IMG/VR virus record: IMGVR_UViG_3300031949_000001
Location: 155,305 to 219,304 of that record
DNA: 64,000 nt
DNA from: a virus
Lineage: Duplodnaviria > Heunggongvirae > Uroviricota > Caudoviricetes
Reading direction: 5' to 3' (one strand)
Positions 8,087 through 24,211 of this stretch are shown piece after piece; positions within the stretch are counted from its first letter, which is position 1; each line of letters starts with the position of its first letter. The position numbers and the translations under genes are program-made. The notes under the pieces were generated by a model. It ran no database searches, had not been told where the DNA came from, and saw only the letters and a list, made by a program, of their open reading frames with translations.

Positions 8087-8419
8087 TTAAATTTCTAAGG
8101 AATTTTTTGACAACCATTTAACCAATTTGGTGGCTTTCCAAGGGGTTTGGAATTCATCATCCGGTTCGAATTCTTTACAATCTTCGAAACGAATGTTGAG
8201 AGGTTGAGGAGTAAGGTCTTCGACGTTATCATACTGCCATTCGACTATGACAGTCTGTCCCGGCTTTAAGAGCACAGCTTTCTTATCGTCACGTTCACCC
8301 ACGATTAAGCGACAATACCTCGTTATATTGTAAGTCAGAGATTGGACGGGACATTCCCCAATGTTTTTGAGGAGTTGCTTCTTGGATTCCAAATACTCTT
8401 TGAACGACAATTTATTCAT
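8087..8419 (-). CDS. Hypothetical protein with capsid-targeting-like N-terminus (MNKLSFKEYLE)
   Basis: 110 aa ORF directly downstream of gp23 with its own AATAAATA at 8442-8449. Confidence 0.7.
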   Translation of the reverse strand: MNKLSFKEYLESKKQLLKNIGECPVQSLTYNITRYCRLIVGERDDKKAVLLKPGQTVIVEWQYDNVEDLTPQPLNIRFEDCKEFEPDDEFQTPWKATKLVKWLSKNSLEI

Positions 8420-8490
8420 AGTTGTTTCCAGTGTATGAGGATATTTATTTTGGAACCAACTCTGTGTGACAAAAACTGGAGTGTAAAAGG

Positions 8491-8515
8491 AAAAAGCCCG
8501 GAAACCGGGCTTTTT
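8491..8515. terminator. Intrinsic terminator after gp23 (bidirectional form)
   Basis: AAAAAGCCCGG-AAA-CCGGGCTTTTT perfect inverted repeat with A/T tails, 25 nt past the gp23 stop. Confidence 0.9.
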
Positions 8516-8539
8516 CGTTGTTGCTTTGCCTACTTCTGA

Positions 8540-9991
8540 TTAAGCAAACGTCAGATTAGTAACATTTATTTTTGCGTAATAATCGGCGCTGTTGCCCAAG
8601 CTAGTGGTTTTACTTAAAAATGCTGTCTTTCCGTAACGAGTCATCAAGCTGACAACTGGCTGGAACGTTGCTGGGTTAATAACAACGCCGCTGCTCATCA
8701 ATGGAATGTAAGGACAGTAAAAATATCCTACGTCCAATTCACCATTGCCACCCTTATAGCCCATAAGAATTGTATCGTTACCAGTGTTTAGACCGGCTGC
8801 GGTTGATTCTGTTGGGTTGACTTGGTTCCAGAGGTAGCTGTAAACCTTTACTGTGCCGTTTAGTGTACCAACCAACATTGAGTTGTTTGGACCCTTGAAG
8901 GCGCCTTGGATTGCTGGTGCGAAGACCGACTTGGTTGCGACCTGTAGGACGGAAACAATCATTGGTGAGCAAACCATAAAGTTTGCAGCGCCACGACGAG
9001 TCTTACGAGCAACTTCGTTTGCAACCCACATAACTTGCGCACCGAGGTTCGCAAAGCGGTCACCAACGAATGTTGGGTGGTAGTAACCTGGAGCAGCAGG
9101 TAGTGAACCATCGAACGTGCCGACTGTACCAGCGATGGTAATCAAGTCTGCTAGGATTTCGTTGTCGATTTCCTGAACGATGTGAGCGGATAGTGCTGTG
9201 GTCATTTCGTTTTCTAAATCTAGACCGTGCTGGGCTTGCATGTCCTGCATAGCTTCGATGGTCCATGATGCCTGCAACTTACGTGTACCAGCTTCAACAG
9301 CCTGGGAAACGATTTCTAGAGACATCTGACGACCACCTGAGCCTTCTAGCATGCCACCACCACCACCGTATAGTGAACCACCAACACTAACGCCGTTTAG
9401 AGCGGAAGCACCAGAAGCTGTGTATGCGGTTGAAGTGAAGCCTGCGTTTGCTGGCCAAGCGTAGCCTTGTGCTGTTGTATTGTCGATACTTGGGTCAAAA
9501 GATGTAGTATCGAAACCTGCTGGATCAAAACCGCCTGCGCCTGCTGGCTGACCCTTAGGGTTGGTAATACCGTCACCGGCTGCACCTGAGTAGAATCGAC
9601 GTAGTGCATTTACGTTGCCAAAGGCTTCGCTATCTACACCGACGTTAATTGCACCTGATGGTGTATCCCATGCAGCAATTGAGCCACCTGGAACACTTTG
9701 GTTATACTTGTAGCGTAGTGAGTAAACTAGTCCTACTGGACCACTCATTGGCTGAATACCGACGATTTCTGTGGCAATTGTGCCTGGGATGATACGACGA
9801 ATCATCGGAATCAAAATCTTACGGAAGCCAGCGATGGCTGTCGTGTCTGTTGATCCGGTTGCTGCCGTTTCATTTAGCAGATGCTGCTTTTGGTTTTCGA
9901 GAAGCTTGTCAACGAGACCCTTCTTGTGTGGTTCTAGACCTTCTAGCAAAGCACCCTTAATTTCACCCCAATTTTCAAATAGTTCCTTCAT
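8540..9991 (-). CDS. gp23: Major capsid protein (T4 gp23-like)
   Basis: IPMIRR...EIVGIQPMSGPVGLVYSLRY, RKLQASWTIEAMQDMQAQHGLDLENE, FYCPYIPL, MTRYG. Probable gp21 cleavage at LLNE|TAAT. Confidence 0.97.
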   Translation of the reverse strand: MKELFENWGEIKGALLEGLEPHKKGLVDKLLENQKQHLLNETAATGSTDTTAIAGFRKILIPMIRRIIPGTIATEIVGIQPMSGPVGLVYSLRYKYNQSVPGGSIAAWDTPSGAINVGVDSEAFGNVNALRRFYSGAAGDGITNPKGQPAGAGGFDPAGFDTTSFDPSIDNTTAQGYAWPANAGFTSTAYTASGASALNGVSVGGSLYGGGGGMLEGSGGRQMSLEIVSQAVEAGTRKLQASWTIEAMQDMQAQHGLDLENEMTTALSAHIVQEIDNEILADLITIAGTVGTFDGSLPAAPGYYHPTFVGDRFANLGAQVMWVANEVARKTRRGAANFMVCSPMIVSVLQVATKSVFAPAIQGAFKGPNNSMLVGTLNGTVKVYSYLWNQVNPTESTAAGLNTGNDTILMGYKGGNGELDVGYFYCPYIPLMSSGVVINPATFQPVVSLMTRYGKTAFLSKTTSLGNSADYYAKINVTNLTFA

Positions 9992-10027
9992 GTGAACTGC
10001 TCCTTTTTTAATTGGTTGTTGTTGTAG

Positions 10028-10993
10028 TTAGTTCGTCATACCAGCGAGTTTCAAGAAGTCACTCTTGAGTCTCTGTACAGGAGTTGTCTCTTGAGAGACA
10101 CTTTCCTCTACAACCTGATCTTCGGAATCACCAGTTTTGAGGATTACTGAACCCTCATCTACTCTTGATGAAATATTTGCGCTCTCAGCTAGTACTCTAG
10201 TTTCCTTCTCTGAGCCACCGCCCTTACTTTCATTATTTTTCTTACTGCCCTTAACGCTTACGTCCTCTTTTAATACACGACCAATAAAGGTCTTGTATCC
10301 TTCTTCCAACTGTTCAGTTGCGACGTTGGAAAGAATTGTTTCCATGACTTCTCTAGCAGTACCGTTAAGTGGCTTAAGAACGCTTTCCATCTTGATCTTA
10401 CGGGAAAGAACTGCCTTTTCACCAACTTCTGTTTCGTACTTAGACTTGAGTGCGTCAAGTTGTTCTTGTGTTTCGCGAAGTTCAGCCTCAACACTGAATT
10501 CATCAACGAAATGCTTGCGATACTCTTCGGAGAAAGCTTCATAGAGCTTACGACCGAATTCAAGTTTACGAGCTTCTTCGATATCTTCACGAAGTTCTTC
10601 AAATTCTGCTGCGATACGGATTTCAAGGAAGGCGTCTAGTTTCTCTACAAGAGACTTTAGATCCTTCTGAAGTTGTTCGCCCATAACACCCTTAGCTTCA
10701 ACAAGCTTCATTGCAAGTTCAGCTTCAAGGTCACGGAAGCTAGAAATGTCACCCTTGAGTTCTGAGAGTTCGTTATCACAGAATTCTGTGACCTTTTGGT
10801 CAATGGCTTCGATCAATGCATCGCGTTCTCCGATCCACTGTTCAGCAAGTTGTGCGCGAACTGTATCTTCAGCTTCTTTCTTAGCGGCATTGACTGCCTC
10901 TTCAAGTTGCTTCTTCACAGCCTCTTCCAATTCCTTCTTTGATTCTTCTGAAAGGATTTGGGCTTCTAGCAATTTCTTCAAAAGTTCTTCCAT
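10028..10993 (-). CDS. gp22: Prohead core scaffold protein (T4 gp22-like)
   Basis: Acidic coiled-coil protein between gp21 and gp23. Start reassigned from 11017 to 10993 (MEELLKK) because AAGGAGA lies 5 nt upstream. Confidence 0.85.
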   Translation of the reverse strand: MEELLKKLLEAQILSEESKKELEEAVKKQLEEAVNAAKKEAEDTVRAQLAEQWIGERDALIEAIDQKVTEFCDNELSELKGDISSFRDLEAELAMKLVEAKGVMGEQLQKDLKSLVEKLDAFLEIRIAAEFEELREDIEEARKLEFGRKLYEAFSEEYRKHFVDEFSVEAELRETQEQLDALKSKYETEVGEKAVLSRKIKMESVLKPLNGTAREVMETILSNVATEQLEEGYKTFIGRVLKEDVSVKGSKKNNESKGGGSEKETRVLAESANISSRVDEGSVILKTGDSEDQVVEESVSQETTPVQRLKSDFLKLAGMTN

Positions 10994-11023
10994 TGTTATC
11001 TCCTTGGAACTCTTCATTGTTAT

Positions 11024-11031
11024 TATTTATT
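11024..11031 (-). promoter_or_regulatory. T4-type late promoter (gp22-gp23)
   Basis: AATAAATA upstream of 10993. Confidence 0.6.
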
Positions 11032-11120
11032 AAGCTCTTGTAAAATCAGAGAAATTCTGTTTTTAGTTTAAAATTCCTCAATTAATTCAATAACTTACAA
11101 AAGCATGCGTTTTGTAGTTT

Positions 11121-11753
11121 TTACTTCTTTAACAGTATTTCAATAAACGCTTTAATCTCTTTTACGAGATATTTTTGTGCGACTGGATCATGACAAACCT
11201 CTTCTGAAAGAGTTAGAATTTTCTTGCCATTAGGAGCGTAACCAAGTGCTTCGTAAATAGAATTTGGTCTTGCACCTGGAGCCGAAGGTGTAGCGACAAT
11301 GTCAACTGTGATGAAGTTAAATCCTTCAACCATACCATTTTCCTGAACACTACCTGCGCCTCGGGAGCTAACACCGATACGAACACCACTTTCGATAAGT
11401 GTGCGTGCAATGTTGCCCATTGGGGTTGGAAGAATTCTTGCGCGACCTACGGCGTTATTACCCTCCATACGGAGGTCGGTGATCGCGTGAGAGATTCTTT
11501 CAAGATTGATGTTTAGAGTTTGTGGATGATCTAGTTCACCAAAAATTCCCTTTTGTTCCATGATAAGTTTTGATGCTTCTGAAACAGCCTTGGAAATTTC
11601 GGAGACTGGATATGTGCGATTGTTGCGGTTCTTAATGCCGCCCTGCATGAAGATACCAGCCAAGAAGCAGTTCTTACCATCAGCCGAAGATTCGTTGATG
11701 ATATTGGCTTGCATCGGGGTTAGTTCTTCGATAAGAATTTGTGGTGTAGGCAT
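11121..11753 (-). CDS. gp21: Prohead protease (T4 gp21-like)
   Basis: GIFMQ...KNRNNRTYP, GELDHP (His), GVSSRGAGS (Ser), DIVATPSAPGA. Confidence 0.95.
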   Translation of the reverse strand: MPTPQILIEELTPMQANIINESSADGKNCFLAGIFMQGGIKNRNNRTYPVSEISKAVSEASKLIMEQKGIFGELDHPQTLNINLERISHAITDLRMEGNNAVGRARILPTPMGNIARTLIESGVRIGVSSRGAGSVQENGMVEGFNFITVDIVATPSAPGARPNSIYEALGYAPNGKKILTLSEEVCHDPVAQKYLVKEIKAFIEILLKK

Positions 11754-11784
11754 TTAAGTGACTCCAGAATAAAAGGGTTAAGGA

Positions 11785-12105
11785 TTACTTGTCTTTCTTG
11801 TCTTCCTTTTTGTCCTTCTTATCCTTTTTATCGTCTTTATCGCCATCGTCATCTTTATCTTTTTTGTCCTTCTTGCCTTTCTTTTCGTCGCTCTTTTCTA
11901 GTTTCTGAGCGTCCTTAAGTTTGTCGATAGCTTCGTCTTCCATCTTTTCTGCCTTTTCTTCTTTTTTGTCGTCATCATCTTCTTTTTCGGAAACGATAGA
12001 ACGCATCTTGTCGGAGACATACTCGTGGAAATCAGTTGCAGCTTGTGCATTGTTGTCCTCAATGAGAGCATTGACCATGCTCATGAGCTTTTCTTTCTTA
12101 GACAT
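11785..12105 (-). CDS. Small highly charged prohead core protein (gp67/gp68-like position)
   Basis: K/D/E-rich (DKKDKKDK) and located between gp20 and gp21; SD AAGGAGA. Confidence 0.65.
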   Translation of the reverse strand: MSKKEKLMSMVNALIEDNNAQAATDFHEYVSDKMRSIVSEKEDDDDKKEEKAEKMEDEAIDKLKDAQKLEKSDEKKGKKDKKDKDDDGDKDDKKDKKDKKEDKKDK

Positions 12106-12141
12106 AGGTATTTCTCCTTGAAAGTCAGGTTGTTGTCTACT

Positions 12142-12149
12142 TATTTATG
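12142..12149 (-). promoter_or_regulatory. T4-type late promoter (core protein-gp21)
   Basis: CATAAATA upstream of 12105. Confidence 0.7.
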
Positions 12150-12331
12150 AACTAATTTATGGGGCGAACAAGGATTTCCTTAAGTGTTTGATATTTAAGA
12201 ATTTTCGTTCATTATAATTTATATAATCCAAAAATTATCCCAATAATTCATACGTTTAAAGAGACTAAATACAAGAGAAGGATCGTATGAACATATTATC
12301 AAACGCTAATGTTTTACAGTAATACTCCGAA

Positions 12332-14032
12332 TTAAGCTGGAGTAGCTCCGGCAACTGGAGGAGGTCCACCAGCACCGCCCATACCCATCGCTTCACCGCC
12401 TGGGGCACCGCCTTCAAGACCAGCCATCTCTTCGCCTCCCTCACCTGGAGGAGCGCCCATCGGACCGCCGATTCCTCCACCGCCTCCGATTCCTCCACCC
12501 ATACCAACTTCTTCACCACTCTGACCATAAAGTTTAATGAGGTCATCGTCGGTTCCCGTGTAAGGAATGCCCTTTTCTTGACGTAGGAGTCGTTCATTTG
12601 TAATGACTTCATCTTCCGAAAGCTGCATGATACGAGACAAGATGAATCTCTTAGCCAAGAAGGAAAGACCATCTGCTGTACCAACTGCATTGAGAAGTTG
12701 AGCATCCAATTCGACTTGGCGATACTTACCGAAGTTGCTTGGTTCTGGAAGTCTAATAATATAGGAGTATGGATCAATATTGACATCTACGTGGCGTAGA
12801 TATCTCTTGAACTCGTCGTCAAAAACGTGTTCAATATGGCGTTGTAGACGTTCGACAAACAAAGCAAAACGCAACTCTTCTATATAGGCGAGCCCGACTT
12901 TACCATCATTAAACATAACATCCTTAGCGTTTCTTGAAGCCTGAAGCCAACTAACTGGAACACGTAAGCCCATATAGACTTTAGTTTGGAAATAATCCAA
13001 ATCTGACAATTCTCCAAGGCTTTGACCACCAGGAAGTGTATCAACCTTGGAGCCCCGACCATCAGGACGAACAGTGAAGAAGAAGTCTTCAACCATAGCC
13101 TGTGGGTTGTAGACGCTATCGATTTGATCTTTACCGCCTTGGTGTGTTGGAACCTTTCTTTGGCGAATTTCATTTTTGAAAGTTTCGAGGTATTGTTTAG
13201 CTCGATGTGGTGGCATTTTACCAACATCGATGTAAAATACGCGTCGCTCTGGAGCACGCTGAATACGATAAATAACAATTGCATCTTCCAGCAATTCCTT
13301 CTGTTTGTGGGAACGATAGACACTTCGAAGAATAGAATCACCAAATGGAGCGGCTTCCGACATATCATCGTTTAAGGTGAAACGGATAACATCAGAGGAA
13401 GCGATGTATTCTGAATTGTATTCTTGACCTAACGCAACTGCGTGTCCTGGACCCCATGGACCTGGACCGCCTGCCCCACCAGCACTTCGAGGGCGGCGAG
13501 TATCAGTACGGATTTGATAGCCGACAATCTTGGTGACATCAACGGCGTCAACAACCGCAGCTAAAATGTTCTGTGGAGGAACCCATTCCCACTTTTTATC
13601 ATCACCATGACGGCGGAAAAAGCAATCACCATATTTGACGGTATTGCGGGCAATTTTATGAAGACGGATGCCAAGGTCGTTGATTCTAGACCATTGACGC
13701 AAAGCAATACGAAGAGTAGCAACCATTGTTCCGTCAAGTTGTTGACCTTCTTCTGTTTGAAGTTCTAGGTCAAATAATAGCTTTGTCTTGCGGTTTACAC
13801 CGGTCATTTCTTCGGCAATTGTATCAAGAGCACGAGCGACTTCAACGTCAGTATCCATGATATCATATTCGCGATATCTTGTTAGGCGCGTAGCTGATCC
13901 TTGAACAAGTCTTTGATACCAAGTATAGTTCCCGAATGAGGCATATGAGCCATCAATACCCTGACTGTCCTGCTGTAGAACCGTGTCTGGTTTTGGGGTA
14001 ACTATTCTAAAGAAACTTTCAATTTTTGACAT
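12332..14032 (-). CDS. gp20: Portal vertex protein (T4 gp20-like)
   Basis: LLEDAIVIYRIQRAPERRVFYIDVGKMP, EDFFF, GSKVDTLPGGQSLGELSD; Gly-rich C-terminal tail. Confidence 0.97.
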   Translation of the reverse strand: MSKIESFFRIVTPKPDTVLQQDSQGIDGSYASFGNYTWYQRLVQGSATRLTRYREYDIMDTDVEVARALDTIAEEMTGVNRKTKLLFDLELQTEEGQQLDGTMVATLRIALRQWSRINDLGIRLHKIARNTVKYGDCFFRRHGDDKKWEWVPPQNILAAVVDAVDVTKIVGYQIRTDTRRPRSAGGAGGPGPWGPGHAVALGQEYNSEYIASSDVIRFTLNDDMSEAAPFGDSILRSVYRSHKQKELLEDAIVIYRIQRAPERRVFYIDVGKMPPHRAKQYLETFKNEIRQRKVPTHQGGKDQIDSVYNPQAMVEDFFFTVRPDGRGSKVDTLPGGQSLGELSDLDYFQTKVYMGLRVPVSWLQASRNAKDVMFNDGKVGLAYIEELRFALFVERLQRHIEHVFDDEFKRYLRHVDVNIDPYSYIIRLPEPSNFGKYRQVELDAQLLNAVGTADGLSFLAKRFILSRIMQLSEDEVITNERLLRQEKGIPYTGTDDDLIKLYGQSGEEVGMGGGIGGGGGIGGPMGAPPGEGGEEMAGLEGGAPGGEAMGMGGAGGPPPVAGATPA

Positions 14033-14061
14033 TGTTTAGGTCTTAAGTTATTGTTTGGAAG

Positions 14062-14069
14062 TATTTATC
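14062..14069 (-). promoter_or_regulatory. T4-type late promoter (portal)
   Basis: GATAAATA upstream of 14032. Confidence 0.7.
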
Positions 14070-14090
14070 AACATTAAAAATAGGTATGCG

Positions 14091-16406
14091 TTACTGCCTC
14101 ATTTCCCGAGCCGCTTTCAGCGATGAACTAGGCGCAGTTAAGAGGCGTTGTAATTTTTGTGCTTCGGTATCGGAATATGTTTTAACTAATGTTTCAATAC
14201 CACCAGCAATTTGTTCTAATATTTTTTTGCTTTGTTGTTGCATGACAAGCATTGCTTCCATTGGATTTGAAGTTCCAGTTTCACCCATTGCTGCGCTTCC
14301 CGGAGCGGTATCTGATGATTCGTTTGTAGGAGCCTCAATGGCTGCGGCTTTGTATCCTGGTTTTTCCCAATAAGCAAGTTGTCCCTTAGAATGCAGGCGA
14401 GCCTGCAAATCTTCACGAGTATCAGTCTTAAGAATTTTTGCCATCTTGGCGTTTATTTCTTCTTCTTGCTCTTTGTTTTTATAGGCGATATAGGCTTCTT
14501 CTGCCCCAATAGCTAATCCACCAACTGCTCCAATAACACCTAAACGACTCGCAGCACCACTAGCACCACCCATAGTGCCGGTACCGCTTTTAATTAAAAT
14601 TCCAGCAAGACTTCCAAGAGATCCAAGTAGTTTTCCGATACCACCAGTGAGAAGAAGACCTATGCTTCCTAACAAAATACCAGCCAATCCATTTCCAGAG
14701 AGCCAGTTATAAATCTTTTCGACCCAAGAAGCGATATGTCCCGCTTCGACTATTGCCCTTTGAACTCCGGTGTTTATATCAAGCGATGCTTGTGCTTCTT
14801 TATCTGTTCGCGCTTTGCCGCCTGTAATGGTACCTTCAACACGGGCAGTATCAAATACAGCTTTCAATCCAGGAAGCGCTTCTTGCGCCCTACCCGCCAT
14901 TTCTTGTAAGGCATCAGCAAATGGATTACCAGCAGAATCTAATTCATTGAATCTTTTTTGATATTGTTGACCAAATTTAATCTGAAGTTTCTCGTATTGT
15001 TGTTCTTCTTTCGCGTCTCGCTTCTTTCGAGAAAGAAGCATCAATTGACGCGTGTCTTCAGGACTCATACCAATCTGAGTAGCCAAGACACCCAATTGAG
15101 CGGCGCCCCGGATTCTTTGAACAGGCGTTGCTTGGCGGCGTAATTTTTCGAAGCTTACTGCTAATTGTTTAGAACGCTCGATGCTTAGACCCATGACTTG
15201 AAATTCTTCAACACGACGGTGAATATTAGCAAGAACTTGTGCTCTCTCTTGTACTGTAGCCTTGGCGAGCCCTTCGCGAATTTCCTGATCGTTTAGAATT
15301 TGATTATCCATTTCAACAAGCTGTTCGGCTGTCATAGTGGTGGATCGTCGCATTCTTGTTAACTCTTCAATATATGATTTAGATCTTGCTTTTAGTTCTT
15401 TTGTAGAAAGAGTAGTGGAAGCTAACGATGTTGTTAAGTCCATTGCGGCTGCACCCAACTTACCACTAAGGATTGGGTCCATCCCAGCAAGCTTCATAGT
15501 TTGAGTTTGTAAATCGGTCAAAGTAGCATTAAAGGTTTCAGCACCACCTTTCATGGCGAATATTGTTTCTTTGTTCGCTTGCATTATATTCTGCAAGTCT
15601 GTCACCTGAAGAAGCAATCTACTCGAAGCACCAACAAACGGAGCAACACCGGTCTTATAGAAAGTGTTCGATGCGTCAATAAGTTGTCTTACTGCCTTTT
15701 CAACACCACCTATGAGCATTTCAGCAGATTGAGCTTTTAAGTAATTAATAAAAGAAGCTATTCCATTAGGACCACGAAGCGAGTCCGTAATTGCTCCTAC
15801 AATACCGCCACGTTTTTGAAGTGAATCACCGAGAGCTTCTTTTATACTGAGTTTTTTAAATTGTTTATCTAAGCTTTCAAGATGGTCCGTCGTGTCTTTA
15901 ATTTCTTGACCGAATTTATCAGCATATCCACGAAGGACAGCCGCCATTGCGACGACTTCTCCTTGACTCTTGGTACTATCTGTTAGGAATTGTTCAATCT
16001 GGTTATGGAATAATGCATAATCTCTACCGAGAGCCTTTTGAAGTTGACCATTTTCTTTTGCCGCTTTGATATAAGCTTGAGCACTAGCGGTGAATTGTTT
16101 TCTTGAATCCGAGCTTGCTGAATTCAAACCTTTCAAGGATGCTTTCACATTAGCGTATGATCTAACTTGTTCGTTTAGTGCTTTGACAAATTTAAGCAAG
16201 CCCCCATCTGCTTTATCAAGGCTTTTGCCCATTTTCTTGGCAATTTTTTCAACTTCTTGTTCTATGCGTGCTTTTTTAAATTTGTCTGATGTATTTGCCA
16301 ATGCTTCGGTAACTCCTAAAGTCGAACGGCTTAGCTTTCCGTATGTACCGGCTAAATTGTCCATCGCTTTAATTAAGGCTTGTTCTGAAGTCTGAAGGGT
16401 TGCCAT
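14091..16406 (-). CDS. Tape-measure-like protein
   Basis: 771 aa, Ala/Leu/Lys/Gln-rich helical composition with a Gly-rich hydrophobic segment near the C-terminus; late promoter; divergent from the gp26-like chaperone. Confidence 0.6.
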   Translation of the reverse strand: MATLQTSEQALIKAMDNLAGTYGKLSRSTLGVTEALANTSDKFKKARIEQEVEKIAKKMGKSLDKADGGLLKFVKALNEQVRSYANVKASLKGLNSASSDSRKQFTASAQAYIKAAKENGQLQKALGRDYALFHNQIEQFLTDSTKSQGEVVAMAAVLRGYADKFGQEIKDTTDHLESLDKQFKKLSIKEALGDSLQKRGGIVGAITDSLRGPNGIASFINYLKAQSAEMLIGGVEKAVRQLIDASNTFYKTGVAPFVGASSRLLLQVTDLQNIMQANKETIFAMKGGAETFNATLTDLQTQTMKLAGMDPILSGKLGAAAMDLTTSLASTTLSTKELKARSKSYIEELTRMRRSTTMTAEQLVEMDNQILNDQEIREGLAKATVQERAQVLANIHRRVEEFQVMGLSIERSKQLAVSFEKLRRQATPVQRIRGAAQLGVLATQIGMSPEDTRQLMLLSRKKRDAKEEQQYEKLQIKFGQQYQKRFNELDSAGNPFADALQEMAGRAQEALPGLKAVFDTARVEGTITGGKARTDKEAQASLDINTGVQRAIVEAGHIASWVEKIYNWLSGNGLAGILLGSIGLLLTGGIGKLLGSLGSLAGILIKSGTGTMGGASGAASRLGVIGAVGGLAIGAEEAYIAYKNKEQEEEINAKMAKILKTDTREDLQARLHSKGQLAYWEKPGYKAAAIEAPTNESSDTAPGSAAMGETGTSNPMEAMLVMQQQSKKILEQIAGGIETLVKTYSDTEAQKLQRLLTAPSSSLKAAREMRQ

Positions 16407-16436
16407 TGGAAAATATCCTAAAAAATCAACATCAAA

Positions 16437-16444
16437 TATTTATG
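16437..16444 (-). promoter_or_regulatory. T4-type late promoter (tape measure)
   Basis: CATAAATA upstream of 16406. Confidence 0.7.
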
Positions 16445-16522
16445 AGTAAAGCTAAAACCCTCGATTTTGTGTCTCAAACTAGGTGGATATATAAGAATAC
16501 GACTATTCAATGGAGCAATTTT

Positions 16523-17350: not shown

Positions 17351-17574
17351 TCCTTAGATGGAGAGGACCATCCGAGGTCAGTAAATTCTACGCCTCTACT
17401 CAAGCTGATGCGAAGCAGTTAATTACCAGCATCATCTCTATGGTTTATTTTATGCGCGGCTCGCTATCTTATGAAGAAGCCATGAATATGTGCCATGCGG
17501 AACGTTCTATTGTCATGGAGTTTTTGAAGGAACGTTTCGAACAAGAGAAAAAGAACCCACATCCTGTTTACTAA
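17338..17574 (+). CDS. gp51-like chaperone C-terminal segment, probably reached by -1 frameshift from gp26
   Basis: The -1 frame is open from 17329 to TAA at 17572-17574 (FFYLILRWRGPSEVSKFY...MVYFMRGSLSYEEAMNM...ER...FLKERFEQEKK). First ATG is at 17440; T7 run at 17338-17344. Confidence 0.7.
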   Translation, partial: FFYLILRWRGPSEVSKFYASTQADAKQLITSIISMVYFMRGSLSYEEAMNMCHAERSIVMEFLKERFEQEKKNPHPVY

Positions 17575-17577
17575 GTG

Positions 17578-17585
17578 GATAAATA
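17578..17585 (+). promoter_or_regulatory. T4-type late promoter (GNAT)
   Basis: GATAAATA, but only 5 nt before the ATG, so the transcript would be nearly leaderless. Confidence 0.5.
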
Positions 17586-17590
17586 TTAGT

Positions 17591-18298
17591 ATGAAAATCC
17601 ACGACCTCGCACTTTCCGAAAAAATCAACACCGATGTTACCTTTGAATACGATGCAGATTCTGAAGGGGATAACAATCGCGGTTTTCAAGTAGATAAAAT
17701 CGAAGCCTTCCTAAACGGTGTCAATGCCGGATATCTCAAAATTACCTACATACCAAAAGCTCGATTCAAAGCTCGCTATTCTAACATTCTCAATTTTCTT
17801 TGTAATATGGAAGGACATGTCAGCATCCTTCCGTATGCGTATCGAGAACTTGATTATCATGACATACCACCAGAAGAACTACGTAGGACTCTATGGCATG
17901 CCGCATCCGTTGGATTTGGATATGTGGATAATGAAGAATCGAAACAATTAGAAGAATTACCTACCGAACAAATAATTCCTACATACGAAAAAATCGAAGC
18001 AGCCGCTAAAAAGAGATATGGATTGAGATTTAGACAATTTAAAAATTATTACGTAGACAAGGCATATGTTGATTTTATTCGTGTACTTCCTGCATTCCAA
18101 CGGAAAGGGATAGGTATAGCTTTGTATCGAGCGGGATATGAGTGGATGAAAAAGAAAGGAATTCCATTTTACGCATCAGGCACACAAACAGACTCCGCTA
18201 AAGCTGTATGGTCAAAAATGAGTCAAGAATATCCAGTAGCATATGATAAAACTGTGCTTGGTAATAGAAAGTTTACCCGCCAACGATTCGACGCTTAA
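17591..18298 (+). CDS. GNAT-family acetyltransferase
   Basis: Acetyl-CoA motif A (VDFIRVLPAFQRKGIGIALY), then ASGTQTDSAKAVW. Late promoter GATAAATA at 17578-17585. Confidence 0.75.
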   Translation: MKIHDLALSEKINTDVTFEYDADSEGDNNRGFQVDKIEAFLNGVNAGYLKITYIPKARFKARYSNILNFLCNMEGHVSILPYAYRELDYHDIPPEELRRTLWHAASVGFGYVDNEESKQLEELPTEQIIPTYEKIEAAAKKRYGLRFRQFKNYYVDKAYVDFIRVLPAFQRKGIGIALYRAGYEWMKKKGIPFYASGTQTDSAKAVWSKMSQEYPVAYDKTVLGNRKFTRQRFDA

Positions 18299-19884
18299 CG
18301 CATTTCTTTATAGGCTTCCATCCACCAATCTGGAATCGTGTGTCGAGTTTTAGACATCAAGAAATTCCAGCTTGAATCCAAGATGTAAACAAATCCCCAA
18401 TCAGTCTTTGACCTAACCACGCGTCCGCCGCCCTGAATGACCTCTATAAGCGCTTGGCGAGCATACCACTCGTCGGAGATAAGCTTCCTAGTGAATACCC
18501 ATTGGTCTCCCAGGAATGGGTATGGGATTTTTGCGAAGACCGCAAAGCGGGCAACATCTCCAACTAAGTCCAAACCTTCTGTGATACTCGGGGAGAAGAG
18601 AATACAAGGCTTGTCTGATTTCTTAAACATGTCAATAACCTTCTCACGTTTCATGCCGCTTTCTGGATTATGGTGCATAATCTCGTGACTGGTTATGGTT
18701 TGAAGAGCGTCGGTCATCCATTTGGCAATTGCGAAGCTCGCAGTATGAACGATGCCCGAATCATTTTCGTGCATCTCCAGGATATGACTCATCGCATTAA
18801 TCATCTTATCCCTTCCATCCCGGTTTTCATCTAGATGCCAATCCTTATTCATTTTCATGGTAGGAATGAAAATGACAGGACGATTTTCGTGCGGGAATTC
18901 AGAATCCATTGTCAGGAATGCCGAATCATTATAATTTAATCCCAAGTCTTGACAGAATCCTTTATGGTTTAAAACAGTAGACGACATGAAAAGGAACTGT
19001 CCAGCCTGTGGCTCTAAGACATGATGGAAGCTAAAGCCAGCAAAAAGGCGCTTGAATTTGATGTTGCTTTTATCGTAGATCAAGGCAAAATCTTTCTGAA
19101 TTTGTTCAACTGGTGAATCAACGAGCCATTCAATCGTAGAACAGTGTTCCTCTAGAGAATTCAACTCACGTAACATGTTGAGTTCTGCTCCGGTAGGATT
19201 TCGATCCATCATACCACTTCGAAGTTCATCTGTTTTGTCTGCCAGTTCTTTAGCCTTTTCGATGATGATGGGAAGATAAGCATCTCTGATCCAATCAATG
19301 GCTTCGCGGATGTTTCTGGCGGCTTGGAATTTAATTCCATAGCGTTTGCATCGGGCTTCCGAAACCTCGATGGCATCGAGTTCACACAATTCCTGTTCAG
19401 AATTGTGACATTCGTCTAGGATCATCAATGGACGTGGTTTGAATACACCAGCGTACATGAAGGAAAGTAAAGCCAATTTGTAGTTCAATATAACGTGCGG
19501 CGAGTATTTGGCTATCTCTTTTGCGCCTCGATATGGACAGAATTCGCATTGTGGTTTGACCAAGCTACCAATATCGCAGGTTGTTTTATGCGGAGCGCAA
19601 TTGTAGTTGCTCTTGCCGTAAAAGCTGAAGACGCGGTTGCGTGGGAAGGAATCCTCATATTGTTTCTGAAGGATCTTCTGAGGCGTCAGAACGAATGACT
19701 TCCTAGCATCTGGACTTTGAATGTAATTAGCGTATGTGATTCCGATGTGACTCTTACCTGCACCTACTGGCGCTTCAAGGATAAGATATTTTGCTGTTTG
19801 TTGTTCGAGCCACTCCAATGCTTTGACTTGTGTATCTCGTGGTGGACTGGTGGGATGTGACCAATGTTCAAGGATTGTAGACAT
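18295..19884 (-). CDS. DinG/XPD-family SF2 helicase with Fe-S cysteine cluster
   Basis: EAPVGAGKS (I), ILDECH (II), EGLD, KIPYP, QGGGRVVRS (VI); four Cys in NYNC..TC..QCEFCPY. Start uncertain (19884, 19917 or 19944). Confidence 0.9.
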   Translation of the reverse strand: MSTILEHWSHPTSPPRDTQVKALEWLEQQTAKYLILEAPVGAGKSHIGITYANYIQSPDARKSFVLTPQKILQKQYEDSFPRNRVFSFYGKSNYNCAPHKTTCDIGSLVKPQCEFCPYRGAKEIAKYSPHVILNYKLALLSFMYAGVFKPRPLMILDECHNSEQELCELDAIEVSEARCKRYGIKFQAARNIREAIDWIRDAYLPIIIEKAKELADKTDELRSGMMDRNPTGAELNMLRELNSLEEHCSTIEWLVDSPVEQIQKDFALIYDKSNIKFKRLFAGFSFHHVLEPQAGQFLFMSSTVLNHKGFCQDLGLNYNDSAFLTMDSEFPHENRPVIFIPTMKMNKDWHLDENRDGRDKMINAMSHILEMHENDSGIVHTASFAIAKWMTDALQTITSHEIMHHNPESGMKREKVIDMFKKSDKPCILFSPSITEGLDLVGDVARFAVFAKIPYPFLGDQWVFTRKLISDEWYARQALIEVIQGGGRVVRSKTDWGFVYILDSSWNFLMSKTRHTIPDWWMEAYKEMR

Positions 19885-19941
19885 AGCTTTTCCGTTGTTA
19901 TTCTTCTTTACCATCATATCAGAGATAAGGAAACAAGACAA

Positions 19942-19949
19942 CATAAATA
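19942..19949 (+). promoter_or_regulatory. T4-type late promoter (nucleotidyltransferase)
   Basis: CATAAATA 19 nt before ATG 19969. Confidence 0.7.
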
Positions 19950-19968
19950 TTCAATCTTAGAGGAAAAA

Positions 19969-20709
19969 ATGCTATCATTCAAAGAGTTTTTGATGGAAAA
20001 AATAACTATATCTCACAAGGATATTAGTTTCGAATACCACGATGAATTACATCCTGATTTTTGGGATGACGGAAAGTTGCGTTCCGAGATTCGGAAGCAA
20101 CTGTTGAAGATAGCGGACAACTTCCTGGCGTCCTTTAAAAAAACAAAACTAAAAGTTTCAGACATTGTTTTCACCGGAAGTCTTGCAGACTATAATTGGA
20201 GTTCTTCATCAGATGTTGATGTCCATGTTATATTCGATGTAAAAAATGGAGGTAAGATTGATGCCGAAGAGTTCATAAGGGCTAAATTGAAGGACTGGCG
20301 TAAAGATCACAAAACAATTACTATCAAAGGGTTTCCGGTCGAAGTATCGATTGAGACGCCAAATGAATCTCACGACAATCGAGCAGCAGGCGCATACAGT
20401 CTGACCAACGATGAATGGATCACAAAACCAAAAGAAAAAGAAGAATCAGAACTAGACCATGACGCGATTAAAAAACGTGTCATGGAATTAGAAAAAGAAA
20501 TAGATTCGATGATGGTAAAAGACGCTTCTCCAAAAAAGATCGAGGCTTTTAAAGACCGTATCCGTGACGCTCGAAGCGCTGGCTTAAAAACCAAAGGCGA
20601 GTTCTCTGAAGAGAATCTCGCCTTCAAGGCTTTACGAAAAGAAGGTACATTAGATAAACTTTGGGATCATGCCAAGGCTATCGAGAATGCTGCTTTAACT
20701 CTGAAATAA
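19969..20709 (+). CDS. Pol-beta-superfamily nucleotidyltransferase
   Basis: FTGSLADYNWSSSSDVDVHV (GS...DxD) plus a later acidic strand (PVEVS) and a helical C-terminus. Start reassigned to 19969 (GAGG SD; late promoter 19942-19949). Confidence 0.8.
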   Translation: MLSFKEFLMEKITISHKDISFEYHDELHPDFWDDGKLRSEIRKQLLKIADNFLASFKKTKLKVSDIVFTGSLADYNWSSSSDVDVHVIFDVKNGGKIDAEEFIRAKLKDWRKDHKTITIKGFPVEVSIETPNESHDNRAAGAYSLTNDEWITKPKEKEESELDHDAIKKRVMELEKEIDSMMVKDASPKKIEAFKDRIRDARSAGLKTKGEFSEENLAFKALRKEGTLDKLWDHAKAIENAALTLK

Positions 20710-21186
20710 CATTCTGTTCTGAAGCAGGTTTTGAGCAACATACAAATCGTGCTCTACGTCCACTTCTTGCCAAATACCGTACAGGTATTCGTTGGTAATC
20801 CGCCCATAATCTTGTCCATCTGCTTGCCATGCGCCACAATCCTTAAGAGGAATGAGAATAAGCCATGTCACCGGAAGTGTGATGATTGCGATGTAGCATA
20901 GAGCGATAACCGAAATGACTACATCCAGTAACGCAAATACAAAAAAGAGTAGAAACAAGAATTTCCAAATAGACGGAACCCAACTACCACCGACAGGCTT
21001 TGTTATTTCCCGCCCCACCAACGAACCAAGAAGAAAGGGAAGAAATGTGCCGGGTGCATCCATTGCATTACAAAAAGCGTTTGCGAAGTGAGTAGCATCT
21101 CCGAGAACTTGACGCTCACCCCAAGGTTTGAACCAAGTCCAAATCTTAATGTGCAACTTCATGATTAATTTAATTAGGAACCGCAT
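20695..21186 (-). CDS. Hypothetical membrane protein, probably early
   Basis: Long hydrophobic segment (FLFLLFFVFALLDVVISVIALCYIAIITLPVTWLIL); sigma70 promoter upstream. Confidence 0.65.
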   Translation of the reverse strand: MRFLIKLIMKLHIKIWTWFKPWGERQVLGDATHFANAFCNAMDAPGTFLPFLLGSLVGREITKPVGGSWVPSIWKFLFLLFFVFALLDVVISVIALCYIAIITLPVTWLILIPLKDCGAWQADGQDYGRITNEYLYGIWQEVDVEHDLYVAQNLLQNRMLFQS

Positions 21187-21217
21187 TTTGCTACTCCAAT
21201 AGAGTTAAGGTGCCAAG

Positions 21218-21246
21218 ATGATATCATTAAAAAGCAAAAAGGTCAA
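21218..21246 (-). promoter_or_regulatory. sigma70-type promoter for the 163-aa membrane protein
   Basis: TTGACC-17 nt-TATCAT with TGn extended -10. Confidence 0.7.
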
Positions 21247-21264
21247 TACATGATTGACCTTTTT
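21236..21264. terminator. Intrinsic terminator after the acidic protein
   Basis: AAAAAGGTCAAT-ACATG-ATTGACCTTTTT, a 12-bp perfect inverted repeat. Confidence 0.8.
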
Positions 21265-21286
21265 ATTTGCCTTTTCGGAAAAGAGC

Positions 21287-21805
21287 TTACTTCATTCTAA
21301 AAACTTTATCGCTGTTGTTCTGTGTAGTGTCACCATTACGTAGTGGTGCATCACCTTCAGGATAATCATCACCACCCTCTGGAGCACCAAGATCTTGTTC
21401 ATCACCTATCTCATCACCACCCATCTCATCTTGGGATTCAGGAATTATTGATTCGTAATCATCCATAGTTATTGGAGACTTATCAAGTGCGAGCATATTC
21501 TCAACTACTGTATGAATTTCTTCGTCGCTTTGTGCTTCTTCATGCGCCCATTCGAGCAATTTGATCAAGAAAGGAACGTCACATTCGAGGCTATCTTCAC
21601 CTTCTAGCGGATCACCATATTCACTTTCGGTATCATCACTGTCGTCGGTTTTGAAATCTTTATAGTCATCCATACCATCGTCGCCGTTTGGCATTGGACC
21701 ATCTGTTACTTCTGGCTGTGGCTTTGCGCCGCCAAATTCAAAATCCATCTCTTTGACCGGCTTTCTGTTTAGACTGACGAGTTCTTTTAGCAAGGACATT
21801 CTCAT
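21287..21805 (-). CDS. Acidic hypothetical protein, probable head-associated protein
   Basis: D/E/G-rich with a conserved-looking core (DVPFLIKLLEWAHEEA..DEEIH.VVENM); SD AAGGAGA; late promoter 21827-21834. Confidence 0.7.
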   Translation of the reverse strand: MRMSLLKELVSLNRKPVKEMDFEFGGAKPQPEVTDGPMPNGDDGMDDYKDFKTDDSDDTESEYGDPLEGEDSLECDVPFLIKLLEWAHEEAQSDEEIHTVVENMLALDKSPITMDDYESIIPESQDEMGGDEIGDEQDLGAPEGGDDYPEGDAPLRNGDTTQNNSDKVFRMK

Positions 21806-21825
21806 ATCTCCTTCGTGTTATGTGT

Positions 21826-22323
21826 TTATTTATCTTGGGGATACTTTACTTGACCATATTTTGCCAGATGGTAGGCATCGGATAGATCCCCCAACCCCGT
21901 TGTTTTTTTAAAACCTGAGTTTTTAAACAAAGTTGCTGTATTGGTTGGAACTTTGTCAATCATGTCTTGCTTTTCGGCTCTACCGTTTCCAGTAGCGAAT
22001 TTCTTTAGAGTTGGAGGCGGTACAATAACAATTGTTGGTTCGTAATGAAGATGGTATCGAATGTAAATTATAATGGCGAATTGCAAACCAGCCAAATCTC
22101 TGGTCATGTTTCCCAAGTTCCCGAAAGACAATCCTTCAAGGATTACCAAATCGGGCTTAATTCGTGTTACTTTAGTTCCGATCTTTCTAGCGATAGCAGC
22201 CGCGTTATGATAGACATCTTCGGTATCATCTTTTTTAAATATTTCAAAATCAACGCATTGGTCATCGTTCATCACAACGACCGCACAGCTTTTATATGAT
22301 TGGTCTATTCCTAAAGTTATCAT
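21826..22323 (-). CDS. ruvC: RuvC-like Holliday junction resolvase
   Basis: LGIDQS, VILEG, PPTLKKFATGNGRAEKQDM, DLSDAY: all RuvC acidic catalytic positions present. Confidence 0.88.
   Translation of the reverse strand: MITLGIDQSYKSCAVVVMNDDQCVDFEIFKKDDTEDVYHNAAAIARKIGTKVTRIKPDLVILEGLSFGNLGNMTRDLAGLQFAIIIYIRYHLHYEPTIVIVPPPTLKKFATGNGRAEKQDMIDKVPTNTATLFKNSGFKKTTGLGDLSDAYHLAKYGQVKYPQDK
21827..21834 (-). promoter_or_regulatory. T4-type late promoter (acidic protein), overlapping the ruvC stop
   Basis: GATAAATA upstream of 21805. Confidence 0.65.
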
Positions 22324-22859
22324 TGTTGTTCCATATATTTAATTATTAATTTTAATTCTTCTATAGTTGCATCTCGCTTAAGTGTGTTCGCACGTCTACT
22401 TATGACATGACTATTATCTTTGGTATAACCTTTTGAATTATCGATCCTGTCGATGGTAGGAGAGAACGACGAATCTTTAATAGAAGTACGACTACTAACC
22501 GGAATAACAAAGGGTTTCCCGAAAACTGGGCACATTTTTGGTATAACTACATCTGAAACGGTTATATTAAATTCAAGATTTCGTTCTTTCGCTCTATATT
22601 TTGCATGAGACCACAAATTTAACGCGTAATTTGCAGCCCTCCGCTTAGGATAATAATTTGGATTTTTAGAAAGCCATTTGTTAACATGTTGTTTATGTTT
22701 TCCAGGATTATCTCTAATCCTCATATTATTACATTCTTTACAATTACCAGTTGATACATATCGAACTGATACGTGCCCGTTAGAACATATTTTATTTGTA
22801 AAGTATAGCTTATTGCCATCCAACTTAGCTTGTTTTCTGTTTTTAATTTCTGCTATCAT
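22320..22859 (-). mobile_element. Free-standing HNH-type homing endonuclease
   Basis: N-terminal C..GH...RY....C.EC module; CPVFG...SPTIDRIDNSKGYTKDN..VIS..AN..K nuclease motif; visibly AT-richer than the flanks. Confidence 0.8.
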
Positions 22860-22930
22860 ATGATCATTGTACTAGGAGTTAATGATATATATTCCATATA
22901 GTTAGCCCAATTGTATAAGGATTTATGTAA

Positions 22931-24211
22931 ATGTTACTTTGTGATTTATTCGAAGAAGCTGAAAATGAGAACAAAGATCTAGTTTCGCCTTATGCAGACG
23001 AAGCAGAAATCCCGGCTGATGCTTACCCAAGAGTCGTTGAAAAGATCGCCGCTCTTAATAAGCGAGCCGCAAAACTGAAAGTTCCGCATGTTCAACTTCA
23101 AATCGTTGAAGAAATCTATAAAGATGTTAAGAAGGATGAAGACGGACCCGCTAGGAAGATGAAATACTTCAAAGTTAAGGTCATCGGAGAATCCCCGAAA
23201 CTAGCCGGTTGGCACTTCATAGCAACCATTGAACACAAAGACTCTGGAAACATTATCCGCGCCGCCCCAGGACAAGAAAGTAACGAAAAGATTCGAGACT
23301 TCTACAATGCCGATCCAGATTATTGTGATTGGTGCAAAACTCGAAGGAATCGTATCGATACGTTCCTAGTTCAGAACGACAATGGCGAGATACGCCAGAT
23401 TGGTCGTAACTGCCTAACAAACTTCTTGGGTGGGATTGATCCTAAAGCCATCATTTGGTACTTCCGTTTCCGTTCGAGCATTGGTGAAATCATTAATGAT
23501 GAAGATGAACGCATGAATCGAGGCGGTAAACGACGTGCTGATTACTTTACTGCGGAGAGTGTTTTGGCTGTTGCTATTAAGGTTGCTGCGAAATTTGGTT
23601 ATGTTACTTCGGCGAAATCTCAAGAAACTGGTTCTTTATCCACTGCGGCAGAAGTTCGTAATTTATTCAATCGAGCCTTTTATAGCTTTCGTACTATGGA
23701 AGATTGGGAAAAAGAAATGATCAAAGCCGATCCTGCCGCTGCCGAGCAGGCAAGAACAATAATCGAATGGTTTAAGGCTCTTCCAGAAAAGGAAAGAGAA
23801 AGTAACAATTTCATGCATAGCTTAAACGTTCTACTTAACAGTCAGCAGATTTCTGGTCGTGACCTTGGATTCGTCATTGCTTTGATCCCGACTTACAAGC
23901 GTGCTCAAGAAAACCAACTAAAAGCAAGCAATCCTAAGTCCAATGATTGGCTCGGAGCCGTGGGACAGAAGCTTCCACCTACTCGTGTTACGGTTATTGG
24001 AACGCAGGATATTGCAAGTGATTACGGTACGAAGCAATTAGTTCGTATGGAAGATGAACAAGGTCATATGATCATTTGGTGGAATAGCAGTCAGCACAGA
24101 ATGGAGCAAGGAAAACAATACACCATCACTGGCGGTACTATCAAGAAACATGATGAATTCCGTGGTGTGAAACAAACCGTCTTGACTCGCGCCAAACTTA
24201 CGCCGGTCTAA
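22931..24211 (+). CDS. Hypothetical protein with Cys motif and C-terminal OB-fold-like domain
   Basis: YCDWC..RRNR...IGRNCL..FLG; C-terminus VTVIG...YG...LVRMEDEQGHMIIWW...G.IKKHDEFRGVKQTVLTR. N-terminus MLLCDLFEE. Confidence 0.6.
   Translation: MLLCDLFEEAENENKDLVSPYADEAEIPADAYPRVVEKIAALNKRAAKLKVPHVQLQIVEEIYKDVKKDEDGPARKMKYFKVKVIGESPKLAGWHFIATIEHKDSGNIIRAAPGQESNEKIRDFYNADPDYCDWCKTRRNRIDTFLVQNDNGEIRQIGRNCLTNFLGGIDPKAIIWYFRFRSSIGEIINDEDERMNRGGKRRADYFTAESVLAVAIKVAAKFGYVTSAKSQETGSLSTAAEVRNLFNRAFYSFRTMEDWEKEMIKADPAAAEQARTIIEWFKALPEKERESNNFMHSLNVLLNSQQISGRDLGFVIALIPTYKRAQENQLKASNPKSNDWLGAVGQKLPPTRVTVIGTQDIASDYGTKQLVRMEDEQGHMIIWWNSSQHRMEQGKQYTITGGTIKKHDEFRGVKQTVLTRAKLTPV

Follow-up and report, generated by a model that had tools for sequence, protein, structure and literature searches.

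The analysed stretch is 64,000 nucleotides (nt) long (positions 155305–219304 of the 378,912-bp IMG/VR viral contig IMGVR_UViG_3300031949_000001, completeness estimate 94%; hereafter, the window) and belongs to an uncultured T4-related jumbo phage. Within the window, a Pol-beta-type nucleotidyltransferase and a protein of 110 amino acids (aa) both begin with a leader of the type of the T4 capsid-targeting sequence (CTS), and a third protein tagged in this way is encoded nearby. From their sequences we predict, with somewhat better than even confidence, that these are head-internal proteins. The mechanism is known from T4, and it is the cargo and the phage lineage that are new. An initial annotation of the window had proposed five proteins with such leaders as injected cargo; three of the five, namely a GNAT acetyltransferase, a very acidic protein and an 'OB-fold' protein, are weak or doubtful. 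All five open reading frames (ORFs) and N-termini were present in the sequence, with the start of the acidic protein corrected to position 21799.

In the T4 CTS, residues 4 and 7 mainly serve targeting and residues 8 and 10 serve processing, and an Asp at position 10 blocks cutting while leaving targeting unaffected (PMC9026906). When the N-termini were read from the T4 genome (NC_000866), internal proteins (IP) IPII and IPIII indeed started with MKTYQEFIAE, as stated in the initial annotation, IPI started with MKTFKEFTSTTTPVSTITE, and gp61.1 started with MKTFKEFIKE. The first residues of IPI are MKTFKEFTS, and the [ST]-F-K-E-F of the leaders in the window is identical to that of IPI. The other T4 N-termini read were those of Alt (MELITELFDED), gp22 (MLKEQLIAEA), gp21 (MNEPQLLIETW) and gp24 (MAKINELLRES). 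Gene 61.1 (NC_000866, 18966–19130, minus strand) encodes a hypothetical protein of 54 aa with a full IP-type leader.

The clear CTS-tagged candidate is the nucleotidyltransferase (19969–20709, plus strand; 246 aa, 27 kDa), which matches Pfam NTP_transf_2 (PF01909, 2.6e-5) and PHROG 36119 (1.5e-49). Its ATG sits within a longer ORF overlapping the helicase gene, and a GAGG and the late promoter box CATAAATA are found just upstream. The protein is composed of the leader MLSFKEFLME (residues 1–10), a variable linker (11–19) and a folded core, and the Pfam and PHROG alignments both start at residue 12. F4 and F7 occupy the targeting positions, and L-M-E at 8–10 forms the processing site. A total of 37 homologues were found, sharing 23–91% identity, and 18 of them have the N-terminal pattern M-x(0-3)-[FY]-x-x-[FY]-[LIVM]-x(1-2)-E. 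In an alignment of 33 homologues, F4 was found in 22 of 30, F or Y at position 7 in 21 of 29, L or I at position 8 in 26 of 29 and E10 in 21 of 29, while positions 5, 6 and 9 varied freely, with 13 different residues at position 9. The conserved leader positions are those of the T4 mutational map (4 and 7 for targeting, 8 and 10 for processing).

In the nucleotidyltransferase, conservation is lowest and gaps are most frequent in the linker behind E10 (similarity 0.34, 43% gaps); the similarity is 0.53 in the leader and 0.61 in the core. This bears out the expectation that homologues keep the leader while the adjacent sequence diverges. One homologue, P0020, has no leader and begins directly at the core. 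AlphaFold2 prediction with the family alignment gave a pLDDT below 50 for residues 1–19 and of 85–98 for the core; the leader is, according to this model, conserved yet not part of the fold. In the syntenic relative L161 (a Logan contig; 50% identity), the nucleotidyltransferase gene also adjoins the helicase gene, and its product carries the leader MLTFKEFLKE. The catalytic G-S ... D-x-D motif is intact, with G70, S81, D82 and D84 invariant in the 33 homologues, and the C-terminal half is helical. The nearest solved folds were MNT antitoxins, aminoglycoside nucleotidyltransferases (ANT) and CD-NTases, all weak (E 0.007 or worse), and the fold search gave no match at E ≤ 0.001. We predict that this protein is probably packed in the head and ejected into the host together with the DNA; our guess, made on the model of T4 Alt and IPI, is that it might play an early role in anti-defence or host takeover.

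The 110-aa protein (8087–8419, minus strand) is encoded immediately downstream of the major capsid gene and consists of the leader MNKLSFKEYLE and a small beta domain. Its aromatic residues F6 and Y9 keep the T4 spacing, shifted by two. The leader is kept in the 10 orthologues of this protein (including XacN1 ORF270 and RAS14), with S5, F6, K7 and Y9 invariant, but this conservation is less telling than that of the nucleotidyltransferase leader, since the entire protein is conserved. AlphaFold2 gave a pLDDT of about 55 for residues 1–20, with a low-confidence helix at 6–19, and of 78–94 for the beta domain. Neither Pfam nor PHROG gave a family match, and the fold search gave no match at E ≤ 0.001; in the part of the XacN1 supplement that was available (PMC5852040), ORF270 is given only as a predicted ORF. 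From its sequence, we read the 110-aa protein as targeted to the head, possibly untrimmed; instead of being an effector, it may function inside the head or in head assembly.

The third tagged protein lies about 1.1–1.7 kb past the window end (L003:1120–1707, genome 220424–221011, minus strand). It is a Q/S/T/P-rich, coiled-coil-like protein of 195 aa that starts with MLTFKEFLLAE, with aromatic F4 and F7 and with L-A-E at 9–11, and its gene is located downstream of a 446-aa Ala/Gly-rich late gene. A tblastn search with its first 60 residues gave no match. Beyond the first ~10 residues, the nucleotidyltransferase, the 110-aa protein and the 195-aa protein are mutually unrelated.

All-pairs similarity of N-termini in the genome was not distinct from that of internal windows, with paralogues dominating, and a motif-position test was used in place of pairwise similarity. 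The heptad h-x-E-[FYW]-[LIVM]-x-E occurred 10 times in the 621 predicted proteins, 4 times at positions 2–7, where 3.5% would be expected (p = 2.6e-4), and a looser form of it was N-terminal in 9 of 37 occurrences (p = 3.8e-6). With the same pipeline, the strict heptad was N-terminal in 3 of 5 occurrences in T4 (IPII, IPIII and gp61.1; p = 3e-4), and no enrichment was found in T5 (0 of 0), phiKZ (0 of 5) or XacN1 (0 of 2). Since enrichment was found in T4 and in this genome and not in T5, phiKZ or XacN1, the signal is specific and not a general property of phage N-termini. Furthermore, F-K-[ED]-[FY]-h is encoded at nine sites of the genome in any frame, three of which are the three FKE[FY]L N-termini. 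The FKE[FY]L leaders are thus more than chance, while MKIHDLALSE (GNAT), MLLCDLFEE (OB-fold) and M(RM)SLLKEL (acidic) failed the heptad test.

To see how far the leader extends, IMG/VR was scanned with a DNA pattern of M-x-[ST]-F-K-E-F-L-x-E, and 80 loci among the matches listed were examined. The scan returned at least 120 stretches, against about three expected by chance according to our own estimate from 36 bits, while a control pattern of similar information content, MKLHELLxE, returned 12 stretches with few real genes. In the 80 loci, an in-frame stop preceded the ATG by a median of ~5 codons, and almost all of these ATGs were genuine ORF starts; codons varied synonymously at each leader position. 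Among the 78 proteins with enough sequence after the leader to be compared, there were at least 39 unrelated families. The annotated ones among the matches listed included SAM lyase (16 members), DUF6267, NT5C nucleotidase, HAD phosphatase, methyltransferase, DPBB lytic transglycosylase and Zn protease, together with several small, very basic proteins. ATAAATA was present 8–45 nt upstream in 34 of the 76 distinct sites (45%), with a peak at 18–23 nt, compared with 0.9% of background windows. Homologues of T4 proteins (terminase, gp15, gp4, gp18, gp20, gp21 and gp23) were detected in 64 of the 80 loci, while T5 queries matched 12 and phiKZ queries three. As judged from these sequences, the leader is a portable N-terminal module of the T4 superfamily that is tied to late promoters, and a 2022 review had suggested the CTS as an evolutionary device for loading varied proteins.

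The SAM-lyase family is found in T4-like cyanomyoviruses such as P-TIM68, S-N03 and P-SSM2, and its tagged sequences suggest that SAM lyase might be a virion-delivered anti-restriction enzyme in T4-like cyanophages. Separately, SAM lyase (Pfam PF23780, 3.4e-17; L058:652–1164 and 15 other loci) was the commonest protein behind MKTFKEFLxE among the matches listed, usually with ATAAATA, and its homologues in cyanophages P-TIM68, S-N03 and S-H34 align with it from residue 1. A leader-tagged cytidylyltransferase-like protein (L082 in IMG/VR) was also considered as the virion 'cytidylyltransferase' of cyanophage S-SM1 and was rejected, not being that gene.

The late promoter motif was then assessed in the genome itself. 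ATAAATA occurs in 124 copies and lies within 150 nt upstream of 80 predicted genes; in 61 of these 80 the box is 10–40 nt from the start codon, and the portal, scaffold and other structural genes are included. ATAAATA is a genuine positioned promoter element. The initial annotation had given four of the five genes a late promoter of their own, which holds for three of them, with boxes 19–27 nt upstream. The nucleotidyltransferase gene has CATAAATA at 19942–19949 (plus strand), 19–20 nt before the ATG with the GAGG between, and both the box and its spacing are conserved in L161; the 110-aa gene has AATAAATA at 8442–8449 (minus strand), 22 nt before the ATG; and the gene of the acidic protein has a GATAAATA box 27 nt upstream of its start codon. 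Late transcription of these three genes is predicted from the motif. The box of the GNAT gene (17579–17585) is misplaced: it ends 5 nt before the ATG, outside the working range, and was not counted as a promoter because a T4-type transcript would start at or inside the start codon. No late box was found upstream of the OB-fold gene, in agreement with the initial annotation.

The machinery to which such a leader would be addressed is encoded by the same phage. The head genes are in T4 order on the minus strand (8087–14032). The portal gene (12332–14032) is followed by the gene of a 106-aa protein with its own late promoter (11785–12105), whose product has an N-terminal helix and an acidic/basic tail and is a candidate for the gp67/gp68 place in the prohead core by position and composition alone. 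The prohead protease (11121–11753) is a homologue of T4 gp21, as had been stated initially, with matches to Pfam Peptidase_S77 (8.5e-26) and PHROG 207 (2.9e-59) and the N-terminus MPTPQILIEE, compared with MNEPQLLIET in T4 gp21. Between the protease and capsid genes is the gp22-like scaffold (10028–10993, PHROG 10922), which probably starts at 10993 (MEELLKKLLE) and is preceded by a AATAAATA box of its own, located at 11024–11031. An S77 protease and a gp22-type scaffold core are thus encoded together. The gp23-like major capsid protein (8540–9991) is 54% identical to its counterparts in XacN1 (Xanthomonas), Xoo-sp13 and RAS14/CM1 (Stenotrophomonas) and ~43% identical to those of Rak2-like phages, and the phage is an XacN1/Rak2-related jumbo phage. 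By position relative to LTE|AEIGG in T4, the end of the capsid propeptide is probably HLLNE|TAATG, which is a site of the L-x-E type. A search of the head-module DNA against cultured phages gave no match, and single-protein locus searches in IMG/VR returned near-identical copies only.

With a T4-type head-assembly core (portal, gp67/68-like protein, S77 protease, scaffold and gp23-like capsid) and a T4-type CTS in one phage, the following course is proposed. The amphipathic N-terminal leader of about 10 residues, with aromatics at 4 and 7 and [LI]-x-E at 8–10, is seen in the sequence. It would dock the late-made protein on the scaffolding core during prohead formation, after which the prohead protease would cut behind the Glu, with the propeptide departing and the mature protein remaining amid the packaged DNA. 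The protein would finally enter the host along with the genome.

Three features of the T4 internal proteins recur here: the 10-residue N-terminal M-x-[ST]-[FY]-[KQ]-E-F-[LI]-x-E with its aromatics at 4 and 7 and [LI]-x-E at 8–10, the presence of an S77 protease and a gp22-type scaffold in one genome, and a leader common to otherwise unrelated proteins. The T4 internal proteins are small, basic and DNA-associated, however, whereas a 27-kDa nucleotidyltransferase and a small beta-domain protein are the cargo proposed here; T4 has a hypervariable ip locus, whereas the genes here are dispersed, each with its own late promoter; and the phage is a 379-kb XacN1/Rak2-related jumbo phage known from sequence alone. 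T4 packages and injects the ADP-ribosyltransferase (ART) Alt, which gp21 trims at both ends; a 7-residue propeptide is lost from Alt (PMC9026906). Like Alt, the nucleotidyltransferase is proposed to be a late-made enzyme that would enter the head by means of a short N-terminal propeptide with h-x-E at its end and would act before phage genes are expressed; unlike it, the nucleotidyltransferase has an IP-type CTS, which the Alt leader MELITE (7 residues) is not, and belongs to another enzyme class. The ejection proteins of phiKZ, 201phi2-1 and SPN3US also come from jumbo phages whose gp21-related protease cleaves behind Glu and which deliver many internal proteins to the host, but the propeptides of these proteins are mostly longer than 100 residues and the motif is A/S/G-x-E (PMC5694885); in phiKZ, the leader studied here is not enriched. 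The polyvalent proteins and the P1 Dar system share the idea of capsid-preloaded enzymes (ART, GNAT, lytic transglycosylase and others) that act on entry (cited in PMC7824862; PMC9024508), and differ in being giant multidomain proteins or in loading through DarA/Hdf, whereas here single-domain proteins carry a 10-residue tag.

Among the remaining three proteins, the GNAT acetyltransferase (17591–18298, plus strand; 235 aa; Pfam Acetyltransf_1, 2.4e-7) has the weak leader MKIHDLALSE. The N-terminus of its family is conserved as M-[KR]-h-x-[ED]-h-h-x-E, and a short linker separates it from a strongly conserved VTFEY..D.EGD.NRG block, but the targeting positions are aliphatic or absent in the family, with H4 and A7 in this copy, and the corresponding leader MKLHELLxE is not widespread in IMG/VR. 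It is doubtful that the GNAT protein is tagged cargo. As a separate observation, the nucleotidyltransferase (19969–20050) and the GNAT protein (17591–17660) are alike past their leaders (E-K-I-[NT]-...-[VI]-[ST]-F-E-Y), a resemblance that could be due to chance or to a shared N-terminal module of slightly greater length.

The very acidic protein (21287–21799, minus strand; 170 aa) most likely starts at the second ATG, at 21799, with MSLLKELV, given the AAGGAG 8 nt upstream of this ATG and the same MSLLKELV at the start of the L161 orthologue. It has no family match in Pfam or PHROG. The L-K-E at residues 4–6 could possibly be a short leader like the MELITE of Alt; such strong acidity would be unusual in a protein sharing the head with DNA, and we hold its being tagged cargo to be slightly more doubtful than in the case of the GNAT protein. 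The 'OB-fold' protein (22931–24211, plus strand; 426 aa) matches PHROG 2319 (4.1e-84), aligned from residue 24. Its start MLLCDLFEE has C4 and F7 at the targeting positions, falling short of the two aromatics, and its homologues (in KVP40-like, Aeromonas, Caulobacter, Streptomyces and roseophages, with siphophages and many other non-T4 phages among the bearers) align only from residue 25–38. Its neighbours are the recombination genes HNH, RuvC-like and gp46/47. A PDB sequence search and Atlas gave no name for it, and PADLOC gave nothing useful. We regard the OB-fold protein as improbable cargo; in all likelihood it serves DNA metabolism as an ordinary protein of the cytoplasm. In the comparison of L161 with window positions 16400–26288, the hub, helicase, nucleotidyltransferase, membrane protein, acidic protein, RuvC-like and gp46/47 genes were kept; the GNAT, HNH and OB-fold genes were absent with other small genes in their place, and these positions are therefore variable insertion sites.

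Several points weigh against the prediction of head-internal proteins. Targeting, cleavage and ejection are all steps that we infer for this uncultured phage. T4 gp61.1 bears the leader and is not among the T4 head proteins tabulated in PMC9026906, so bearing the tag may be required for packaging without being enough for it. The 110-aa leader ends in Y-L-E instead of [LI]-x-E, its XacN1 orthologue (ORF270) has D and no E at the leader end, and no variable linker sets the leader apart in a protein that is conserved throughout. Distant homologues of the nucleotidyltransferase in Lak megaphages and Maribacter (Molly) phages also open with an amphipathic helix, so the family itself could account for part of the leader signal. 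XacN1, the nearest cultured relative, is without N-terminal heptad enrichment (0 of 2 strict, 1 of 29 loose; AP018399.1, first 324 kb), so the clade as a whole does not share the tagged cohort. The virion enzymes named in the text of the XacN1 paper are other proteins, namely a chitinase, a lipase and an M23 peptidase (PMC5852040), and the N-terminus of the XacN1 chitinase, when examined, had no such leader.

The shared N-termini might be no more than the first amphipathic helix, or a translation-friendly A/T-rich start, of ordinary cytoplasmic enzymes that are never packaged. The gp61.1 case and the amphipathic starts of the Lak and Molly homologues fit this explanation, and starts of the form MK-h-x-E-h-h are common, the loosest pattern being found in 36 of 621 predicted proteins here and in 20 of 366 in phiKZ. 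We nevertheless regard it as unlikely, since a general helix or translation start does not account for a strict motif that is N-terminally enriched only in T4 and this genome and not in T5, phiKZ or XacN1, nor for the same 10-mer on at least 39 unrelated families, mostly in T4-like contigs (64 of 80 listed loci) and with late promoters, while the matched control leader is found ten times less often. F4, F7, L8 and E10 are kept while synonymous sites vary, and AlphaFold2 packed the leader onto neither fold, that of the nucleotidyltransferase or that of the 110-aa protein. Another explanation, to which we give a little less weight still, accepts that the leader targets the prohead core and holds that some of its bearers (the 110-aa, 195-aa and acidic proteins) are assembly or core components, degraded or retained, and not effectors. 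The 110-aa gene comes directly after the capsid gene and is kept throughout the XacN1 clade, the 195-aa protein is of low complexity and coiled-coil-like, the T4 core proteins gp22, gp67, gp21 and gp24 also have h-h-x-E N-termini, and T4 gp22, gp67 and gp68 are cut into fragments that are mostly expelled (PMC9026906). The compact, confidently predicted beta domain of the 110-aa protein argues against such a fate, however, and the tag on a folded nucleotidyltransferase, and on the SAM lyases, phosphatases and methyltransferases of related contigs, would be left unexplained.

That all five proteins, including the GNAT and OB-fold proteins, form one injected-cargo system, as proposed initially, is by far the least probable of these explanations. 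It can draw on the conserved GNAT N-terminus, on possible cut sites at L-S-E (GNAT), L-F-E (OB-fold) and L-K-E (acidic), and on the T4 Alt leader MELITE, which is likewise short and non-aromatic. But all three N-termini fail the heptad test, the GNAT protein has H4 and A7 and a promoter box only 5 nt from its ATG, and its type of leader does not occur widely as a portable module; the OB-fold gene lacks a late promoter and lies among recombination neighbours, with the N-terminal 24 residues of its product outside the family profile; and both genes are missing from L161. Of the cargo set proposed initially, the nucleotidyltransferase remains, with a leader that matches those of the T4 internal proteins, while the acetyltransferase and the nucleic-acid-binding protein are not carried by the evidence. 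We therefore prefer to predict the nucleotidyltransferase and the 110-aa protein, with the 195-aa protein nearby, as the head-internal proteins bearing a T4-type leader.

If the tag works as it does in T4, the combination of the leader, [LI]-x-E and a late promoter would predict which proteins uncultured T4-like phages deliver with their DNA, and such proteins would be the first actors against host defences. The candidates, here and in related contigs, that are not yet known as virion cargo include the Pol-beta nucleotidyltransferase, the SAM lyase, the nucleotidases and the methyltransferase, and T4-based protein-delivery tools could be widened by the same tag. More tentatively, M-x-[ST]-FKEFL-x-E might be a general address label of the T4 superfamily, from which an injected proteome could be read from sequence. 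This phage would then carry a preloaded toolkit of at least 10 enzymes, including the nucleotidyltransferase, two protein kinases, a lytic transglycosylase, GNATs, an Acb1 anti-CBASS nuclease and an ART-like protein, which would act before any phage gene is expressed, and cyanophages would inject a SAM lyase.

A number of other genes in the genome have leader-like starts. A homologue of the Acb1 anti-CBASS nuclease (L038:1040–1561, minus strand; Pfam PF23474, 5.5e-38) has a 14-residue N-terminal extension, MKIKEILEEKRKTV, before the domain, which fits the loose leader motif. A 305-aa protein with a late promoter (L033:1581–2498, plus strand) starts with MKLHELLSEN and is a possible Alt analogue, with weak ADP-ribosyltransferase signals (Pfam PARP, E 0.0096; Atlas ART-PolyVal, score 0.80, TM 0.35–0.40). 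Three leader-bearing genes are clustered at L004:3431–5559. One encodes a 243-aa protein that starts with MKISEFLIE and has no family match for this copy, while its paralogue (L036:898–1620) matches a T7 gp0.7-type protein-kinase PHROG; another encodes a lytic transglycosylase (SLT domain, Pfam) with the start MHFSEFIKE and a late promoter; and the other encodes a small GNAT (Pfam) that starts with MKIVDLFE and matches part of a 3925-residue PHROG profile. Finally, at genome position ~268714 (window coordinate 113410, minus strand), a 60-aa protein (MLLREILLIEKKRKKKRKRKSSKK...) has a leader-like start and an extremely basic tail, and resembles both a protein from IMG/VR (L114, MISFKEFLLEKRKRTTKKKRK) and the basic T4 internal proteins.

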